A stretch of DNA of 64,000 nucleotides from contig OZ336876.1 in NCBI GenBank assembly GCA_965287045.1, positions 26,102,001 to 26,166,000 on the forward strand, written 5' to 3'. This DNA is from Carcharhinus amblyrhynchos. Taxonomy: Eukaryota. This document shows, one piece after another, positions 3,186-60,127 of this stretch (within the stretch, counting starts at the first letter, position 1; each line of letters opens with the position of its first letter). Made by a program: the position numbers and the translations under genes. A model generated the notes under the pieces. It saw only the letters and a program-made list of their open reading frames with translations, was not told the DNA's origin and ran no database searches.

Positions 3186-4430
3186 CTTGTTTCATCTTCT
3201 GCAAAAGAAAGAACTCATCCTCTATTGTTTTAGGTGTACAAGATCTCTGACTCTGGATGAATATCCATCCTCCAAGACTCAGTACTTCATGGTGCCACTT
3301 GTTAGTGCGGCTTGTGGTACATTATTTACTATTTTAGAATGACACAGCAGTTAAAACAGAGCAATTGTATAATTGTTCATAAATTAAGTTACTCCACTGT
3401 TTTAATTACTTGGTGTGATTCTCTCTGTCTCTCAAAAAGATAATGTTATGTCATTATTTGTGCTTTCATGCTGAACAATTGCCTTGCACATCTGCAAGTT
3501 TCACTGAGAATTGACAGTGGTGTATTTGCCAACAGCGATACCACAAACATTATGCTATTTGCTACCACGCCTAATTTTTAGCATTAGCTCAGGCACATTT
3601 TCCTCTGGCAGTCAGATTATAATATGTAAATCAGAAAATTAATGGAATACTGGTGCATCAGCAATAGTTAACTGGACACACTGTCAAAACCTGTGTACTT
3701 GCAGCTAATCAGATTCTTCTACAAAAAAGTTCCCTTAAAGATTGAGAGTTTGGATAATCTGCTTGTCGTGCCAGTTAACTAAATGTTGCACTTTGGTTTC
3801 CTGATGAAAGGAACAGTAAAGTTAGCATTGAAATTAAGATCCCATTCTATCCTCCTCCCATTAACACAACGTGAATGACCCTCCTTTGAACTTCTTATAC
3901 AATATCGCCCCCACTTTTGCCATTTGAGTTCTCAGAGCATAAGTCATTGAAGAAAGAATCATTCATTCATGAAAGGAAATCCAAAAGCAATTCTTCTGAA
4001 GCATTAATTTCAGTGGAAGCAATTTATCTTGTGAAATCTGAAGACTTGTCAGATTTCATAGCATTTGTTAGTGAATTTATTTTTATTTTGAAGAAGTGTT
4101 TGAAATTACAATAATAGATATTTTCTTTGGCGTGGTGTTGTGGTGGCAATGCAAATTGCACATTTGGCGTTTAGCACTGTATTGGGACTGGACTTTCTGG
4201 TTTCAACTGATGTATACATTTTGTTAGTGTTAAGTATCTATTCAGTGAACAGTACACAAAAGTGAAGTTTTTTTGCCATCTCCAGTTTGATTTCACCCCT
4301 GGTGTCTGCTGCCTAGAATCAAAGTTATCATGTTGTCTTGTCCGGACTTTGCATCCAAATACCTGAAAATGCAAACCCATGTTTGTTCTGGTGTTATAAG
4401 TATGCTTGAATTTATACTGCTGCACCTATT

Positions 4431-4758
4431 AAGAACATAAGAACATAAGAAATAGGAGCAGGAGTAGGCCATCTGGCCCTTCGAGCCTGCCCCGCCATTC
4501 AATAAGATCATGGCTGATCTGTCGTGGCTCAGTTCCACTTTCCCGCCCTCTCCCCATAACCTTAATCCCCTCTCCTATCAAGAACCCATCAACCCGCTTC
4601 TTAAAAATATTTAGCGAGGCAGCCTCCACCACTTCAACGGGCAGAGAATTCCAGAGATTCACCACCCTTTGAGTGAAGAAGTTCCTCCTCAACTCCGTTC
4701 TAAACCGCCTCCCCTTTATCTTGAGGCTGTGCCCCCTAGTCCTACTGTCTTTTTTGAG
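4431..4758 (-). mobile_element. Young CR1 3' fragment, same subfamily as 51525-52390
   Basis: Reverse complement matches 52062-52390 with about 6 substitutions and 1 indel by manual comparison; same tail; ATT flanks both ends. Confidence 0.93.
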
Positions 4759-8439: not shown

Positions 8440-8601
8440 CAAAAGCAATCTGCTGTGGATGCTGGAATCTGAAACCGAAAGAGAAAATGCTGGAAAATCA
8501 CAAAGCTTTGACAAAGGGTCTTCTGGACTCAAAACATCAGCTCTTCTCTCCTCACAGTTGCTGCCAGACCTGCTGAGATTTTTCAGCATTTTATCTTTTG
8601 G
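8440..8601. mobile_element. Short Penelope family A remnant: inverted pair of pseudo-LTR ends with decayed hammerhead
   Basis: GAGAAAATGCTGGAAAATC ... GATTTTTCAGCATTTTATC inverted ends; core TTGACAA 8508-8514; 12-bp TSD GAACAAGATAAG (8428-8439) / GAACAAAATAAG (8602-8613); homologous to 58011-58107. Confidence 0.82.
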
Positions 8602-17380: not shown

Positions 17381-17536
17381 TAAAAATCTGAAGAAAAGCA
17401 GGAAATGCTGGAAACACAGAAGATGTTTCAGGTCATTGGTCAGACAAGCCAGCAACGTGGAATGTTAACCTTTCCTTCTGCTCTCCGTGGATGCTGTCTA
17501 ACCTGCTGAGCATTTCCAATTTTTTTTCTGTTTTTA
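17381..17536. mobile_element. Older Penelope family A-like remnant with inverted ends
   Basis: GCAGGAAATGCTGGAAA ... GATGCTGTCTAACCTGCTGAGCATTTCCA resembles the family A terminus in both orientations. Confidence 0.65.
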
Positions 17537-22380: not shown

Positions 22381-22545
22381 AAAGGTAATATACTGTGGAT
22401 GTTGGAATCTGAAACAAAACAGAAAATGCTGGAAAATCTTAGCAGGTCTGACAGCATTTGTGGAGAGAGAACAGAGCCAATGTTTTAAGTCGGGATGATC
22501 CTTCATCAGAGTTGCTCTGAGATTTTCCAGCATTTTTTGTTTTTA
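22381..22545 (-). mobile_element. Short Penelope family A remnant with inverted end and canonical CUGAUGA core
   Basis: Same pseudo-LTR sequence; minus strand reads CTGATGA-A-GGATC-ATCCC-GACTT-AAAAC (core 22509-22503); short inverted copy GAGATTTTCCAGCATTTT at the right end. Confidence 0.8.
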
Positions 22546-23109
22546 TAACTGAACCTAACCTTTGTACTATGTGACACCTCCACAAAAAGAGTTTGCATCA
22601 TGGGTCTCTCTCTCTCTCTTTAGCAATTAGCAACCCTGGGCCCAGGTGCCGCGTCAGCTTTCCAGCTAGGGTGGGCAATGAGCAAGATATTCTTCGGTAA
22701 ACCAGTACTGAGGAAGTTGATGGGCAAGTTCAGTCGAACAGTGGCACTTTCAAACAAACTTCTCATTGAAAAACCACCTGTTTTCTTGCTTGATATTTCC
22801 GAGTGCAACAAAATGTCCCACACTTCACCAGTTCACCAATTTAAAATCCACCTTCTGACTGGAAATACCCATTGTTGGAACCCAGTGTGCAAATGAAAAT
22901 AGGCAATACTTTTAAATGGAGGTTGGCCTTACCATTTTGCATTCCACAGTCAAATTAGAGGGGAATAGAGGATTCTGGGATCTTGTGACAGACCGAGCCT
23001 TAGCTCACTATTTTTAGACATAGAGCAGATATATCATTTAAACAAAACTTTGCTGTCTTCAATCATTGGTATCATAATAGAGTTGCCACCTCTGGCTCAA
23101 TATATTGCA

Positions 23110-23302
23110 AGAAGTCTCACAACACCAGGTTACAGTGCAAAGGGTTTATTTGGTAGCAAAATCATTAGCTTTCAGGGTGTTGCTCCTTCATCAGGTAATT
23201 GGGAGTGGCTTGTGCTACTAAATAAACCTGTTGGACTTTAACCTGATGTTGTGAGCCTTCTTATTGTGTTTACCCCAGTCCAATGCCGGTATCTCCGCAT
23301 CA
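23110..23302. mobile_element. Penelope-like family B short element: long inverted arms around a hammerhead core
   Basis: Arms AGAAGTCTCACAACACCAGGTTA...GTTTATTTGGTAGCA / TGCTACTAAATAAAC...TAACCTGATGTTGTGAGCCTTCT. Minus strand CTGATGA...GAAAGCTA at 23194-23166. 13-bp TSD TCAATATATTGCA (23097-23109) / TCAACATATTGCA (23303-23315). Confidence 0.78.
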
Positions 23303-24209: not shown

Positions 24210-25850
24210 ATCCAAGTTTGCTGATAGTACAAATCTAGGTGGAAGGAGTAAGCAAAGGCCTTTGAATCAGTTCAGGGTATAGAAAAGAAAGTGCTAGATG
24301 AAATATAATGTGGAGAAATGCAAAGTGATTTGGTTTGATTTAAAAGAAAGCTTTTTTTCTTAAAAGATGAGACTTTTTTTGTGGGTGGGGACCTGACTGC
24401 TCTTGAATACTAATTGCATACAGGTAACATGCAAGTACAGCGAACAATAAGGAAAGCAAATAATATGTCAGCCACTTATTACAAATGCAACAGTATAAGA
24501 GTAAAGAAGTCTTATGGCAATAATAGGGTTTTGGTGAGATCATACCAGTAGAGAAGCAAAATATTGGGGATGCTAGAAATCTGAAATAAAAACGGAAAAT
24601 GCTGGAAATATTCAGCAGGTTGGGCAGCGTCTGTGGAGAGAGAAAGAAAGTTAATGCTTCAGATCAATAGAATTTCATCAAAACTTGGAAAAGTGAGAGA
24701 TGAAATAGGTTTTGAGCAAGGAGTAAGTGGAACAAGGACAGAAAGGGCTATAGGGTAGAAGGCAGGAGAGATTCACTTACAGAAGAACTTGTTTTACAAG
24801 GCCAAAGTGCTGGGTCAAGAAAAAAAAACAAAAGATGTGTCTCGAGCAGGTGTGCTGATGATTGAGGGAAAAAATGAGAGAAAAACTGAAACATGCAATA
24901 AAAGGAAACAAAATAAGGGGACAGAATTTCCCATTTACAATTGTTGAACAATAGGTTAAATCTTAAGTTGAAAAGAATGAGAAGATGACTTCATTGAAAC
25001 ACAAAATTCTTAAGGGGTTACAGGGGGCATATTTCCATTGCTGGGAAATCTATAACTCAGAGTCACTGTCTCAGAATAAGGGGTTGACAATTAGGACTGA
25101 GATTAAAATTTTTTTTTGTTAGAAGGTTTTGAAACTTTGGTATTCTGTACTGCAGATTGGATGCTCTGTTGTTAAGCATGTTAACTAATAACCTTATAGT
25201 AAAGAATTCTCTAGGTAATCATGATCAGAACATAATAGAATTTCATATTCAATTTGAGGGTGAGAAATTTGGGTCTGAAACTCGCATCTGACATTTTAAA
25301 AAAGATAATTGCAAGGAGATGAAAACAAAGTTGCTAAAATGAAATGGAAAATAGGTTACAAGATGAGACAATAAAGAGGGAGTGACTGGTATTTAAGAAG
25401 ATATTTCATAACTCTCAACAAAGATGTCTTCCATCGAGAATAAAGATTCCACAAGAAGGATGCACCATCGATGGGTAACAGGATGGCACCAAATTGAAAG
25501 AAAACTCTGCAAAGATTAGTGGTAGCCCAGAGATTGGGAATATTTCAGAAACCAGCAAATGATGACTTCAGAAAATATAAAAAATGGAGAATTGAAGGAT
25601 GAGAGAAAACGAACAAGAAACATAAAAATGGACAATAAAACTTCCTGCACACATATAAAAAGGACAAGTGAAGCTAAAGTGAGCATTTATCACTTAGAGA
25701 GTAAGACTGGGGAATTAATACTTAAAAATAAGGAAATAGAGAAAGCTTTGAACAAGTCCTTTATATTTGTCTTCATAGAAGACATAAAAAGCATCCCAAG
25801 CATAGTAGAATAGGGGTGGCAAAGAGAGGGAAGAACTTAAAACAATCTGG
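24210..25850 (+). mobile_element. Scrambled decayed CR1 ORF2 pieces (interrupted by a Penelope fragment)
   Basis: TCCAAGTTTGCTGATAGTACAAA (SKFAD-TK), AATGTGGAGAAATGCAAAGTGAT (NVEKCKV), SDHN-like remnant at ~25220 and a lysine-rich linker. Confidence 0.7.
24555..24950 (-). mobile_element. Older Penelope family A 3' fragment inserted in a CR1
   Basis: GATGCTAGAAATCTGAAATAAAAACGGAAAATGCTGGAAATATTCAGCAGG terminus followed by a purine-rich tract like the reverse complement of 57600-58000. Confidence 0.65.
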
Positions 25851-50849: not shown

Positions 50850-50968
50850 TAAAAAGTCTGACAACACCAGGTTTAAGTCCATTTGATCAAATAAATCGGT
50901 TGGACTTAAACCTGGTTTTGTCAGACTTTTTACTGTGTTTACCCCAGTCCAATGCCGGCATATCCACA
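50850..50968. mobile_element. Penelope-like family B short hairpin element
   Basis: 31-bp inverted arms with one mismatch; 13-bp TSD TCTCACGACCTCA (50837-50849) / TCTCGCGACCTCA (50969-50981). Confidence 0.8.
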
Positions 50969-51334
50969 TCTCGCGACCTCACCAGCACTGGATGTCTGGC
51001 ACAATCAGCTTCATGCCCATTTCCTTGATGAGGCTGAATATATTATTTAAATATATTTAAAACTTATTTCATATTGATTTGATAAGCCTTGGACAGAATC
51101 GTTTCGGCTCACTTGCCTGTGTGACCTCAGCAGGAAATGTTATCTCTGGCAAGAATAATAGCTAGTCCCCAGTAACAAGGACTAGTTGTGATGGCCTTGC
51201 TGGCAGAACCAGAGCTGCTGAGGCCCCCTGGGGAAGTTGGGAGCAAGAGAGCTGCTCTTTGGGCAGTGCCAACCCACTTGGCACCCTGGCACTGCCCATT
51301 GTCTGTGTTTTAAACATGCTGTCTTTTCTTTCAG

Positions 51335-51524: not shown

Positions 51525-52390
51525 GATACACTGGGCGAATGGGCCAGGAAATGGCAAATGGAATTTAATGTTGGCAAGTGTGAGGTGGTCCACTTTGGTA
51601 GGAATAATGGTAGGAAGGACTATTACTTACGTGGCAAAAAACTGTAGCAGGCGACGGTGCAGAGGGACCTTGGGGTCCTTGTGCATGAGTCGCAAAAACC
51701 CAGCTTGCAGGTGCAGCATGTGGTCAGGAAGGCGAATGGGATGCTGGCCTTCATAGCGAGGGGGATTGAATATAAAAGTAGGGAGGTCTTGCTGCGGCTG
51801 TATAGGGCATTGGTGAGGCCGCAGCTGGAGTACTGTGTGCAGTTTTGGGCGCCGCACCTGTGCAAAGATATTTTGGCCTTGGAGGAAGTGCAGAGGAGGT
51901 TTACTAGGCTGATACCGGAGTTGAGGGGGTTGAGCTATGAGGAGAGGCTGAATAAACTAGGCTTGTACTCGTTAGCGTTTAGAAGAATGAGGGGAGATCT
52001 CATTGAGACGTATAAGATGATGAATGGGATGGATAGGATAGAGGTGGAGAGGCTCTTCCCGCTCAAAAAAGACAGTAGGACTAGGGGGCACAGCCTCAAG
52101 ATAAAGGGGGGGCGGTTTAGAACGGAGTTGAGGAGGAACTTCTTCACTCAAAGGGTGGTGAATCTCTGGAATTCTCTGCCCGTTGAAGTGGTGGAGGCTA
52201 CCTCGCTAAATATTTTTAAGACGCGGGTTGATGGGTTTTTGATAAGAGAGGGGATTAAGGGTTATGGGGAGAGGGCGGGAAAGTGGAACTGAGCCACGAC
52301 AGATCAGCCATGATCTTATTGAATGGCGGGGCAGGCTCGAAGGGCTAGATGGCCTACTCCTGCTCCTATTTCTTATGTTCTTATGTTCTT
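51525..52390 (+). mobile_element. Young 5'-truncated CR1-clade LINE (ORF2 C-terminus, 3' UTR, (TTCTTATG)n tail)
   Basis: Frame LGEWARKWQMEFNVGKCEVVHFG...QRDLGVLVH...LYRALVRPQLEYCVQFWAP...RRMRGDLIETYK...FFTQRVVNLWNSLP is typical CR1 ORF2. Only one stop seen (TAG 51645-51647) and CpGs are retained. Confidence 0.95.
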
Positions 52391-53119
52391 ATTGGGCACC
52401 AGGCACTGCCAATGGGGTGGGGCCTACTTGTGCGTGGGGCTATGCCAGGAGCAACTGGTCAGTGGGGGAGGGGCAGCCCACTGCCTACTCTGCTTCAGGG
52501 ATCATGGGGAAAATGATGGGGGTGTGATCCAGGCCAATCATAGTGGAGGGGAGGGGGTCAGTCTGTCGATTGGGGGGTGGTGGACCACTGATCACAAGTG
52601 GGTCGAATCACCAGTTGTGGAGGGGAGGAGAGAGAGGGGGATTGGTCCAGGCGGGTGGGGGAATCACAGAGTCGATTGATCTTGGCAGGTGGAGTGGTCG
52701 TGATAGGCTGTGGGCCCCCATGGTAGCTATGGAGAAGGAGGTGGATGACGGGGTTCTTCTTTCTGAGGCTGACTGACAGCAGCAGAGGCTGAGTGACAAG
52801 TGTCTGCTGCGAGAGACCTGCATATGCGCAGTACTGACATCTGCTTCTCTCAGCCTGTGTTCAAGCAATTTACTCCTACCCCCTCCCCTACAGGCAAGGA
52901 ACTTTTTCTTTACTCTTAAATAGATAAGATCGCAGATATTAACTTGCTCAAAACCGGATGTGAAACTCTCCCATTTTCATCCCATTCCAGACTTAGAATT
53001 TTTTTGGTAAGATCACCCCTTTGGAGGTTAATGTATTATTCTGTGTTCAAAAATACACATGCAGTTGTAGATGTGCTAAGAACTGGTGAACAAGCATTAA
53101 AACATAATAAAAGGCTGAT

Positions 53120-55150: not shown

Positions 55151-56890
55151 ATTGCCAAAAAGTGATCAGGAATAGTTAATATCCCTCATTTCTCCTCAAA
55201 GTGAATTCCTGAATTTAGTTATTCCACCAGGGAAGGGAAAAATGCAAACATTTGAAGCAGAGGATGATGTGTCCAGGACTATGCAAAGACAGCATGGCCA
55301 GCGATTCATTTTCATACTTCTCTAGTGATGAATTACACAAAAAATGACCAGCCATCATTTCTCCTTACTGTAAAATTCTATCATTCAAAGCAAAGAAGCA
55401 TATCCTTCCAGAAAAAGAGAGAAAGATGGATAGCTTGCAGAAATTTGCATGTCCTTGTCCTCATTATTAATGAGGAATGATGTTGGGATTTCGTGAGGGA
55501 TGAAAATATAAGCTCAAGAAGTTGAACAAGAAACTGACATCTTTGCAGACAATGAGAAAAGACAGATACTAAATGTGAAAGATGAAAAGAAGATCTTGTG
55601 GGAAATTTTACTGGAGAGCGTTGCAAAATGGATATGTTATTGCGACATAAACCCAATCACCTTGAAGTTATTTATATCATAGCAGCAGGGTTCTTTAAGG
55701 AGACCCTTACTTTTGAATTTTAGAGAAGTGAATGCGCCGAAATGGCGTAGATCAAGGGAATCCCCAAAACAGTGCATCGTTATTATTGTAGCAGATAGAT
55801 GTACAGAGTGCTGTATCATTATATATACCTTTTATTTTGAATATTAAAACATTTTGCTGTTTTGAGGGCTATGTCTGTGTTCTGTTGTCTAACCGCTGCT
55901 GGAATTAATGCAAAAAGCCGGCAAATATACAAAATCACAGCATGTGATCATTCTTAGCATTTACAGAGTAAAACGAAAAAACATGCGCATGTCAAAACCA
56001 GTTAGACAGGTTGCGTTCTTCTGGCGAGCTTAGACTTGAATGTCTGAAATGAATGCCAGAAGCCATTTATATAAAGAAATACTGCTATAATCTACAAGTG
56101 AAAGATAAAAGTCCATCTGAGTCCCACCTAATTTTAGTTATTCCGTGGTTTACCTGGGATATCTAATGTCTGGAACAATGTATGCGAAAAGTGCAACTGC
56201 TACACAAGCCAACATAGCAGTAATTTCACCACATTTAAAATGTACGTCTGGTTTTACAGATGGATGAAAGCTTGTCTCAATTATTGAGGAAATAAGGCTG
56301 AGGATCAGATTTTATTTACCGTTGTACTACCCAGAAAGGAAAAGGAAGCTTAGAGTACAGTAGTGAGGAATTGAATCAAATTACAGGTGCAAACTGGCTC
56401 ATTCATGCCAACTGGTGGAAAAAAATATTTTTGTTTTGTTTTCAATCTGTAATTAAAAGGAAATTGGGAAGGGGATTCATCGTGGGCCAATTTTGCCAAA
56501 CCTTTGAAGTGGCAACCACGTCATTCTCAAATTAATTGGTAATTGCCGTATAATTGGAAAGCAAAGAGTCACATAGTGTGACTAATTTCCATTGTTTCAG
56601 TTTATTCTCAGCACAAACAAGACAAAGATTTCAAAATACTGTTATCTTGGCATCGGCACCATTATCTTCCAACTTTTTTCTGTGATACACATTTCTAGGT
56701 ATGTAACCTTGTAAACCGACTCAGTAGAAATTTTAACCAAATAAAAAGTAAGAATAGAAGGTGCGTATCAGGCATTGATATTTTTTCAGTGAATGATACA
56801 GATTGCGCTCTTCTGGCTAGAATGTATGAAATAAATGCCAGAAGCTATTCATATAAAGAAATGCTCCTCTAATCGAGAGAAAAGTCACAT

Positions 56891-58107
56891 TTGCTCCAAT
56901 TATGCCACTTTCCAAAATGGTGTGCTTCTAATATGTGCTCCTTTTTCCTCAACCGTAGATTCCTATTTACAGTTGTCAACAAGGGCCTCAGCAGTGTGCA
57001 GTCCATCTCCTGCACCATGACCCTCACCCTCTCCCCTCCCTCCCAGAACAATGATAGAGTCCCCTTTGTTCTCACATTTCAGCCCACCAGCCTCCGCATG
57101 CAAAGCATAATTCTCTGCTATTTTCACCAACTCCAGCATGATGCCACCACCAAACACATGTTCCCTTCACTCCTTCTGTCAGCATTCCGCAGAGACTGTT
57201 CCCTTTGGGATAACCTAGTCCACTCCTCCACTGTACCCAACACCTCTCCCATTACTCATGGCACCTTCCCATTGTCCCATTTCCTCTTCTGTGCTTACCA
57301 TCCAAGGTCCAAAATATTAATTCCAGGTTAAGCAGCATTTCACTTGCATCTGTTTCGAATTGGTGTATTGCATTCGCCACTCCCAATGTGGTCACTTTGC
57401 TGAGCACCATCAGTCTGTGCGCAATCAAGACTCTGACCTTCCGGTTCCTTGCCATTTTAACACACGATTATGCTTCCATGCCCACATGCCTGTCCTTGGC
57501 CTGCTGCAGTGTTCTAGTGAAGCTCAACGTAAACTGGAGGAATAGCATCTCATCTCCCAGCTGGGCACTTTACAGCCTTTCAGTCTCAACATTGAATTCA
57601 ACAACATCAGATGATTTGCTCTACCCCACTTCAACCTCCTTGTTTTCATTCTATTTTATTTAGTATGTTACTGTCCTCTACCTTTTATTTCTTTATTGTC
57701 TTTCTTCATTTTTCTTCCCCCCCCAACTCTTTCCCCCTACTTTATCCCTTTTCTTTTACCTTTTCTCCCCCTTTGCTTCCCCTTTTCTAAATTTTACCTC
57801 TGTCCCATCCATTTCCCCCACCCTCCCCTAACATCTTCATTTGTCACAGCTTACCCTCTCATTTTTGCTTTTCTGCTGTTTGGCCATTCATACCCTTTAT
57901 TCTCTCTGTGAACTGCCATTAGCAGTCTTTTCCGCTGGTTTCTGTGGCTATGACTAATGTTTCATTCCCTCACCCTACAGTATTAATATCTTCCACTTTC
58001 TAGGCCTTTTAGCTTTGATAAAGGGTCATCTGGACTCGAAATGTCAGTTCTTTTCTTCCTTACAGATGCTGCCAGACCTGCTGAGATTTTCCAGCATTTT
58101 CTCTTTT
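56891..58107 (+). mobile_element. 5'-truncated Penelope-like retroelement (RT thumb/linker, decayed GIY-YIG endonuclease, 3' pseudo-LTR)
   Basis: NNDRVPFVLTFQP...LSAFRRDCSLWDNLVHS...FQVKQHFTC...LVYCIRHSQCG (YIG segment deleted) HFAEH...LPVPCHFN...RKLEE...LGTLQP.SLNIEF. 12-bp TSD GAAAAGTCACAT (56879-56890) / GAAAAGAGACAT (58108-58119). Confidence 0.88.
58011..58049 (+). ncRNA. Putative minimal type I hammerhead ribozyme (U3-A8 variant) in the Penelope pseudo-LTR
   Basis: AGCU [UUGAUAA] A GGGUC-AUCUG-GACUC [GAAA] UG UC^ AGUU: stem I AGCU/AGUU, stem II 5 bp, loop-less stem III, predicted cleavage after C58045. Confidence 0.65.
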
Positions 58108-58687
58108 GAAAAGAGACATGTCCGTGTGAATCCCACCTAATTTTAGTTATTCCATGACATCCAAGATAAAAATTGTTTTACCTGGGACTACAAATGGTTC
58201 AGAGTTTGATCACATTGTAACCTTCTCAAACATAAATGCAACGTTTAATATCGAGCATTTATATTAATCCTTCAAAGTAAAAAGCATCATGAGCAAAAAG
58301 ACAAACACAAAACTTTGGATGAAAAAAATTAAGAAATGGATGCCTAAACAAGGTGAGAGAGCTGAAAGGGATAACCAGAATTTTGGTTGAAGACATACAT
58401 TTTCAAAAGAGTTGTCAAGGAATTGAGTGAGCGAAAGATGGCTTTGGCGTTCATTTTGGGATAAAGAGAGAGGTGACACACAAAAGGCAAGAGTTGGAGA
58501 ACCGGAGGGGATAAAAAGTTGGGGATGTTGCAGAATTGAGGCAAGTCAAACCATTGAAGGATTAGGCAGCATGTATGAGGATCTTTTAATTACTTGATCC
58601 AGAACAAGAAGCAGTGCAGAACTGAAAGAATGGAGTTGTACATCAATGAGATAAATGAGACTATGTTTTCTGGATATTGGAACGTTG

Positions 58688-58881
58688 TGATGTGGAGATG
58701 CCGGCGTTGGATTGGGGTAAACACAGTAAGAAGTCTTGCAACACCAGGTTAAAGTCCAACAGTTTATTTGGTAGCAAACGCCACTAGCTTTCGGAGTACT
58801 TGCTGCTCCTTTGTCAGGTGAGTGGGAGGTCTTTCCAAATAAACCTGTTGGACTTTAACCTGGTGTTGTAAGACTTCTTAC
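58688..58881. mobile_element. Penelope-like family B short element with inverted arms and hammerhead-like core
   Basis: Inverse arrangement of 23110-23302. Minus strand CAC-CTGACAA-A-GGAG-CAGCAAGTA-CTCC-GAAA-GC-TA-GTG. Flanking direct repeat TATTGGAAC (58675-58683, 58882-58890). Confidence 0.8.
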
Positions 58882-58914
58882 TATTGGAACATCATCAAGG
58901 AAAAGAATTTTGAT

Positions 58915-59049: not shown

Positions 59050-60127
59050 GGGGAGGGAATTCTCCCAAAAGTGCTGAATTGGAAGGAAAACTGTTCTAAA
59101 TCCTCACTGTTCTGACAGTTCAGCTTCTCACCTGAATTTCTGCATTCTGTGCATTGAAGAGGTCCCAGTCATGAGTATCATTAAAAATCCAGGGGGACGG
59201 GCTATTCACGCCAGAGTTTGACAGTTCTGGAGCTCTGCGCATGCGCAGTGACCCCAAGCTATCAACCTCCTGTTTTCTGGCTTGCTTAATCGCTGACCAG
59301 CGTGGGAACCACTGCAGTGCTGCCTCTCCAGCCTCCCCCACAGTCAGATCGCAGCCCCCCACCCCCACAACAATTCCTGAGCCAGCCCTGACCCACCCTA
59401 TCCTGGAGCGTCCCAATGTTCAGGCTCCACCTCCCAAAGTGGCAATCCCCCAACCATCCCCTCACTCCAGCTGACCCCCTTCCCCATTGAACTCCCCCCA
59501 CAGGATTAGACCCCCCCCCCCCCCCGAGGCCCACCCTAATCACTTCCCTCCCTCCATCCCAGACCAATCCTGTCTGCAGAGTGGCAGCAGGGCACCCCAC
59601 CCCCACCGATCGCCCCTAGGCTCTGCCCACATTGGGCCCCACCCCCTTAGCATTGCCCGATGTGCAGTGCCAAGGTGCTTCCTGGGCATGGACACTTTGC
59701 CCCCTGGGTAGTGCCAGGAGGCACTAGTTGGCACTGCCAGGGTGCACATGATGTGGACTTTAACCTGGTGTTGTGAGACTTTTTAGGGTACTCATGCCCA
59801 GAGGGCATCAGCTGCCCACTTCCCGACTCCCTGGGGGGGGGCCCCGATTCCCCATCTCTTCATTCCAGCGGGGTCTCCCGCTAGTTCCCCGACCTGAAAG
59901 GTCCCGATAATGAACAATATACATGTTTAAAATACATGCAGAAAAGATTTAAATCACTTGCCTACCTGCCGATTTCCAGCGTGGTCTGGCTGGTGACTGT
60001 TCATCAGCTCTGGGAGATACGCATGCGTTCCTGGCGCATGTGCAAATCCCTGTCTAAGGCCGCAGACGTGCGTCTCCAACCACGACCAGCCAGAAAAGTT
60101 GCGGGTTACAATGGGAAAATTGTGGCC
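59050..60127. mobile_element. Harbinger-like non-autonomous element
   Basis: TIRs GGGAATTCTCCCA / TGGGAAAATTGTGGCC flanked by TAG on both sides; C-rich interior with GGCACTGCC motifs. Confidence 0.72.
59751..59784. mobile_element. 34-bp family B micro-insertion
   Basis: ATGTGGACTTTAACCTGGTGTTGTGAGACTT flanked by 12-bp TSD AGGGTGCACATG (59739-59750) / AGGGTACTCATG (59785-59796). Confidence 0.7.

Follow-up and report, generated by a model that had tools for sequence, protein, structure and literature searches.

The motif at positions 58011-58049 of the window (the whole 64,000-nt stretch of shark DNA analyzed here) resembles a minimal hammerhead ribozyme in which the C3-G8 pair of the core is replaced by U3-A8. 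This raises the question of whether the replacement reflects the decay of individual copies or the master state of a subfamily and, in the latter case, whether it speaks for selection on self-cleavage. The reading that appears quite probable is that of a decayed minimal type I hammerhead in the pseudo-LTR (pLTR) of a Penelope-like element (PLE), belonging to a U3-A8 subfamily with a C3-G8 sister, whose master would likely have been a slow cleaver, active only as a dimer and probably aided by a protein. The parts of the motif are the following:

58011-58014, plus strand: 5' arm of helix I, pairing with 58046-58049 with one G-U; commonest 5' end of short copies
58015-58022, plus strand: core U3 U4 G5 A6 U7 A8 A9 and an extra A before helix II, from the sequence; the family has C7
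58023-58037, plus strand: helix II, with 5 bp, a 5-nt loop and the closing pair G10.1-C11.1, from sequence and fold
58038-58045, plus strand: G12 A13 A14 A15.1, palindrome center, U16.1 and C17; predicted cut after 58045
58046-58049, plus strand: 3' arm of helix I; 58048 is C>T relative to the family

Within these, the arms of helix II are 58023-58027 and 58033-58037, the extra A is 58022, and the letters at 58038-58045 read GAAATGTC. The target has the core of PLE minimal hammerheads (3-UGA-7-8-A ... GAAA ... UH, with a Watson-Crick 3-8 pair), together with a helix I that the 5' and 3' ends close, a G10.1-C11.1 pair and an extra base past A9. Position 1.3 (58048) is U for C in this copy, as is position 15.2 (58042), where TG in place of CG disrupts the 15.2-16.2 palindrome, which is ACGU in the family majority. 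The pairing of stems I and II and the GAAA/GUC at 58038-58045 that the initial annotation had described are confirmed by reading of the sequence, and the cores that it compared are indeed present, namely TTGATAA at 58015-58021, TTGACAA at 8508-8514 and, on the minus strand, CTGATGA at 22509-22503. The hammerhead models of Rfam expect a full helix III; a scan of the window with Rfam at E<=1 returned no hammerhead and three weak unrelated matches. That the motif exceeds chance is indicated by 1,452 exact genomic matches to its stem-II pattern, versus none for a reversed control, and by 128 matches of a hammerhead descriptor in 982 kb of fetched loci, a sample enriched for the U3-A8 element family, versus none in one mononucleotide shuffle.

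The host element

Judged by homology and translation, the motif sits in the pLTR of a 5'-truncated PLE of the Neptune/Nematis type, with a reverse transcriptase (RT) and a GIY-YIG endonuclease (EN). The target copy is about 1.2 kb long (about 56884-58108), with the motif toward its 3' end and the rest laid out as follows:

56884-57614, plus strand: 3' part of the PLE ORF (end of RT, Cys linker, GIY-YIG endonuclease), 5'-truncated, frameshifted and broken by stops, from homology and translation
57615-57980, plus strand: pyrimidine-rich 3' UTR or upstream part of the pLTR, common to ORF-linked copies in a coverage map
57981-57987, plus strand: TATA-like box, mutated to TATTAAT where relatives read TATAAAT and placed 30 nt before helix I; putative promoter element
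58050-58108, plus strand: remaining pLTR to the 3' end of the element, the shorter of two ends common in the family and about 35-40 nt apart; this copy lacks the optional tail of 35-40 nt

About 40 scored genomic copies are homologous to the query 56800-57620 from near its position 85 onward, with 76-82% identity. In one relative (L233), a 557-aa stretch free of stops contains DKG, YIDD and a CNCRTCNTC linker, as well as a GIY-YIG-like region bearing two cysteines. This linker, of the form CX2-5CxxC between RT and EN, reads CNHRRCNTC in another relative (L255) and is a mark of the Neptune and Nematis clades according to the accessible text of Craig et al. (2021, PMC8557442). The element has the make-up of an EN+ PLE, i.e., a single ORF, an RT with DKG and, at the C terminus, a GIY-YIG bearing CCHH, and its Atlas look-alikes are RT/GIY-YIG/HTH_animal clusters at 0.97. 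In Pfam, RVT_1 gave a sub-threshold match (E 2e-4); no GIY-YIG was found and the endonuclease fragment of the window gave no match. Partner hallmarks of PLEs are also seen, with a direct pair of pLTRs in L266 and inverted partners in L257 and L259. L266 (G000:C23:45883600-45891600) is near full-length and carries a direct pair of U3-A8 pLTRs, spaced by about 6.7 kb and with other repeats interposed; the tail of its first pLTR runs on toward the ORF. ORF linkage and anatomy thereby uphold the earlier assignment to a PLE with a minimal type I hammerhead. Moreover, 28 of the 30 endonuclease-linked loci examined (target included) have a pLTR match, and 27 of these 28 carry U3 and A8; the swap therefore belongs to an autonomous lineage.

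Other repeats share the window. More decayed fragments of the target's pLTR lineage lie at 17385-17533 and 24579-24648. A second hammerhead-bearing repeat family occurs in an inverted arrangement at 58688-58884, where the motif, from about 58821 on the minus strand, is C3-A8 and has an AGCU palindrome at helix III; the 17 descriptor matches of this family comprise 12 C3-G8, 2 C3-A8, 2 U3-G8 and 1 U3-A8. It has further copies in the window:

23104-23302: second-family copy
50850-50970: second-family copy
59754-59785: second-family copy

An inverted repeat pair of about 330 nt (4425-4758 and 52062-52396, 95-97%, 47 kb apart) probably represents two young copies of one repeat, and the SINE-like repeats of the window are ones that we take to resemble elasmobranch repeats.

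The U3-A8 core as a subfamily state

Two readings of the core can be set against each other: fixation of U3-A8 in a subfamily, as the initial annotation proposed, or decay of a C3-G8 master after insertion, through C>T change and CpG loss. Among the 1,452 genomic matches, obtained by holding stem II constant and leaving positions 3, 7, and 8 free, C3 occurs in 59, G8 in 48 and both in 18, versus 1.95 expected (odds ratio 19.9, p 1.8e-14); by subtraction, 1,363 (about 94%) have neither, and U3-A8 is present in 88 of the first 100 listed. The C3-G8 excess is due to subfamily structure, since all 11 C3-G8 loci listed carry, by eye, the downstream flanks of the sister subfamily. A core-unbiased sample was picked on downstream sequence alone, from 90 loci among the first 100 of the 1,252 matches as listed; it comprises, among these matches listed, 95 copies, of which 68 span the core: 62 with U3-A8, 2 with U3-G8, 2 with C3-A8 and 2 with other combinations. 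When copies were clustered without columns 3, 7, and 8 (278 of 364 anchored copies kept, and 100 core-biased copies excluded from the counts), one cluster had U3-A8 in 128 of 142 copies and the other (n=36) had 13 C3-G8, 16 C3-A8 and a single U3-A8. A tree built without the trait columns places the target with 34 U3-A8 rows in a 41-row clade (95/88) and assigns the 22.5 kb copy to a C3 clade of 27 rows (98/94); its columns are few, its bootstrap is unsettled and one of its rows (L278, actually C3-A8) is mislabelled. At 58015 and 58020, contigs of four organisms (one possibly of the same species) show no further letter at 3%, in an alignment at 80% that favors the U3-A8 subfamily.

The sister subfamily gives a view of what decay produces. 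For its stem-II pattern 784 matches are found, and a hand count of the first 100 listed gives 49 C-G, 29 C-A, 7 U-A, 5 U-G and 10 other; CpG decay therefore yields C3-A8 and rarely U3-A8. Among those 7 listed U-A matches, 5 have a loop one change off that of the U3-A8 subfamily. With a pattern for more distant families, C3 is found in 16 of 20 matches, and C3-G8 is the core pair in these families as well as in the sister. The decay reading thus has in its favor that C7-G8 of the sister is a CpG that is often lost, as these 29 C3-A8 matches illustrate, but C3 lies outside any CpG, and U3-A8 dominates the listed core-unbiased copies of its own subfamily (62/68) while being nearly absent from the sister (1/36). 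Subfamily counts, clustering and the sister stem-II listing together refute decay as the source of the swap, and we give it next to no credence. Nor do U3 and A8 occur independently of each other, as C>T change and CpG decay would have it. By the sequences at hand, one subfamily has U3-A8 as its master state, in agreement with the fixation first proposed. The copy at 8508, previously regarded as independent, turned out to belong to the same U3-A8 subfamily as the target. This copy and the sister one are described as follows:

8504-8600, plus strand: short copy of the U3-A8 subfamily starting at helix I, with G12>A and an inverted fragment at 8478-8502
22415-22513, minus strand: short copy of the sister C3-G8 subfamily, with C11.1>U and G12>A

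Given these changes, both are dead fossils.

Cleavage, copy ends and selection

In the mechanism proposed here, the swap would have arisen once in a master copy whose G8 lay in a CpG, the 3-8 Watson-Crick pair being retained. Residue 8, whose 2'-OH is the general acid in hammerheads (PMC11300833, accessible text), could owing to this retained pair still serve in that role, and helix III would be formable only between two motifs, via the ACGU palindrome. Even for the majority sequences, the hammerhead is not the fold of minimum energy: the dimer minimum is at -23.2 kcal/mol and the double hammerhead at -14.9 kcal/mol, while 0.024 is the probability of the two-stem fold of the monomer, with a folding program that does not score the 3-8 pair. 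The double-hammerhead fold of the target is at -5.8 kcal/mol, compared with -14.9 for both majority sequences; with its dimer palindrome lost to CpG-type decay, the target copy is probably inactive.

The 5' ends of copies provide a different kind of evidence. In the 95 copies among the matches listed, 35 start within the three opening bases of helix I, 20 of them at the very first, as compared with 4 that start at most 2 nt from the start of the cut product, 1 of them exactly there (35 versus 4, p 1.6e-9); 21 of the 95 reach at least 99 nt upstream. TATAAAT is located exactly 30 nt before the first base of helix I in 41 of the 45 long copies holding the exact box, and a similar box at similar spacing is seen in a few long copies of the sister subfamily. 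Position 57984 is A in about 99% of the contig depth over four runs, and opposite-strand joints at 58011-58013 recur in 4 of 4 other runs (contigs). Transcription thus likely starts where helix I begins, at its first base and 30 nt past the TATA-like box, a start placed from the ends of DNA copies, and reverse transcription primed about 100-140 nt downstream would run to the 5' end of the RNA, giving rise to many short copies. The RNA would then likely begin at the ribozyme and be mostly copied uncut, since short copies ending at the 5' end of the RNA imply that most templates were uncut.

As to what precedes the short copies that start at helix I, 32 of 59 have inverted element sequence at most 60 nt upstream, and some inverted ones are head-to-head palindromes centered on a self-complementary AGCT, e.g., at 8478-8600 of the window. 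Across 56 short copies, no enrichment was found for a preceding G, the signature of a cap; an untemplated extra C (19/56 versus a 21% background, p 0.03 uncorrected) was considered and dropped.

The accumulation of ends at helix I could also mark a 3' splice site, i.e., a pyrimidine tract followed by AG, or a stop of the RT at structure, rather than a start. The sequence upstream is acceptor-like, and in Penelope of Drosophila virilis an intron has its end at helix I and the promoter lacks a TATA box, but the 27 non-inverted short copies have no upstream exon in common (on average 4.0 of 15 positions match), TATAAAT stands 30 nt upstream in the great majority of long copies (41/45), and an RT stalled by structure would be expected to stop on the 3' side of the fold, before copying it in full. 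This explanation is accordingly held to be quite unlikely.

Whether the double change was selected is a separate matter. Between the majority sequences of the two subfamilies there are 6 differences in 39 positions, namely 3, 8, 17, 1.1, and two loop bases; every pair is preserved and no invariant base is affected. By simple counting, 6 random differences in 39 nt would hit both 3 and 8 with p 0.02 and miss all 11 invariant bases with p 0.115, values computed before allowing for both changes being transitions and for G8 lying in a CpG. The earlier proposal that the swap implies selection for self-cleavage stands insofar as this p of 0.02 and the kept fold speak for it; a single origin, two transitions and a hypermutable CpG at position 8 speak against it, and selection for cleavage would seem to be weakly supported by the sequences; the 8508 copy, being of the same subfamily, adds nothing to this support. 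On copies after insertion no selection is evident, with non-CpG substitution at 6.2% of invariant, 7.9% of stem and 8.5% of free sites under a filter that favors invariant sites; CpG-site substitution is 32%, and core and palindrome survive together in 12 of 124 copies.

It can be argued instead that the hammerhead was already dispensable, and that drift fixed U3 and A8 in the master, each by an ordinary transition and one of them CpG-driven, the motif persisting as promoter-proximal sequence, as an overlapping reading frame or as a protein-binding site. The single event fits this scenario, as do the copy 5' ends indicating uncut templates and, by eye, an open frame that crosses the motif in the family sequence; furthermore, catalytic mutants of the anole element left in vitro insertion unaffected (PMC11167929) and Naiad elements thrive without canonical hammerheads (PMC8557442), both according to the text available. 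Yet all 6 majority differences preserve the fold while including both 3 and 8 (p = 0.02), and a mismatched 3-8 pair was not seen in any expanded subfamily, the 2-3% of mixed classes matching the background rate of transitions. More distant families also seem to swap the 2.2-1.2 pair of helix I from C-G to U-A (7 of 20 matches, a pattern-biased count for which the search pattern forced the A). On balance, fixation by drift is regarded as unlikely, if more plausible than decay after insertion. A rather speculative proposal, also on the unlikely side, is that the ribozyme acts as a decapping switch, triggered by dimers, through which transposition is limited or timed, and that it was selected long enough to fix the compensatory core pair. 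In that case, cleavage past C17 would take off the first 35 nt together with the cap, making the template would not require the ribozyme, and the copies would amount to a fossil 5' RACE.

Several further observations were made on the family sequences. In that corresponding to about 58015-58110, an open frame runs, by eye, from UUG (core positions 3-5; CUG in the sister) through the hammerhead into the tail, and it is possible that UUG/CUG acts as a near-cognate start or that an overlapping coding constraint applies. Two acceptor-like pyrimidine-CAG sites lie downstream of the hammerhead. An apparent second compensatory change, U2.2-A1.2 for C-G in helix I, is found at L281, L284, L285, L287, L290, and L271. 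U3 and A8 together create a 4-bp hairpin scoring +0.6 kcal/mol; template-switch correction of a quasi-palindrome was considered as a source of the double change and rejected, as by eye it is templated by neither arm of the C3-G8 form and the hairpin energy is positive.

Comparison with known systems

The U3-A8 swap is not new. Lunse et al. are said to have described hammerhead variants of PLEs that may already include the present family. The variant, which the initial annotation described as tolerated, has been published both for natural hammerheads, in which C3-G8 covaries to U3-A8 and such ribozymes are reported to be active in vitro (Perreault et al., 2011, PMC3088659), and for those of PLEs in Schistosoma mansoni, with about 1,300 matches to U3-A8 minimal hammerheads (Cervera and De la Pena, 2014, PMC4209133); in the latter work, minimal hammerheads of schistosomes were not cleaved as monomers and little as dimers. 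In the accessible text of Perreault et al., the examples are not tied to retrotransposons, whereas here the motif is in a PLE and helix III would form only in the dimer. A search by title and start of abstract, with most subscription papers outside it, gave no earlier report for sharks and none of the 5'-end pile-up; the accessible text of bioRxiv 10.64898/2026.07.22.740005 and PMC6765202 likewise has none for the host group or for a pile-up, and two files of the PMC4209133 supplement, in the parts available, have no shark term and no TATA.

The closest relatives in organization are the Cercyon PLEs of S. mansoni, which, by the available text, share with the present element the core swap, the pLTR location, the extra base at 9/10.1, a short helix I and the palindromic 15.2-16.2, as well as copies that are mostly single and dispersed, and pairs on opposite strands. 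The element described here differs in its host (with a 2.9 Gb genome) and clade, and its helix II has 5 bp instead of 7-8. With Neptune/Nematis EN+ PLEs, as described in the text available (Craig et al., 2021), it shares the RT, the Cys zinc-finger-like linker and the two-cysteine C-terminal GIY-YIG, together with the tail and the inverted 5'-truncated partner; placed by the linker and not by an RT tree, it is assignable to the Neptune and Nematis pair. The inferred TATA-driven start at helix I is unlike the D. virilis Penelope, for which a TATA-less internal promoter is described (PMC2377424, accessible text).

Descriptor searches fixed on CUGANGA would overlook the large U3-A8 subfamily, and what this genome adds, beside Cercyon, is a natural C3-G8/U3-A8 subfamily pair with only 6 of 39 differences, which would lend itself to a clean in vitro comparison. 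The short copies, which start at the first base of the ribozyme and rarely at the cut site, additionally give a genomic hint on the role of the ribozyme for the element. The PAc Poseidon element of Anolis carolinensis also has a pLTR hammerhead and two 3' ends (a tail), and in the accessible text of Frangieh et al. (2024, PMC11167929) its hammerhead needed the element protein, its catalytic mutants inserted normally, and its main template was uncut RNA with no reads at the cut site. PAc belongs to the Poseidon clade, with a canonical C3-G8 core and a cleavage shown to be protein-assisted; that text gives no 5'-end pile-up at helix I, unlike what is seen here, but the rarity of cut-site starts in the shark agrees with this in vitro work on an uncut RNA template.
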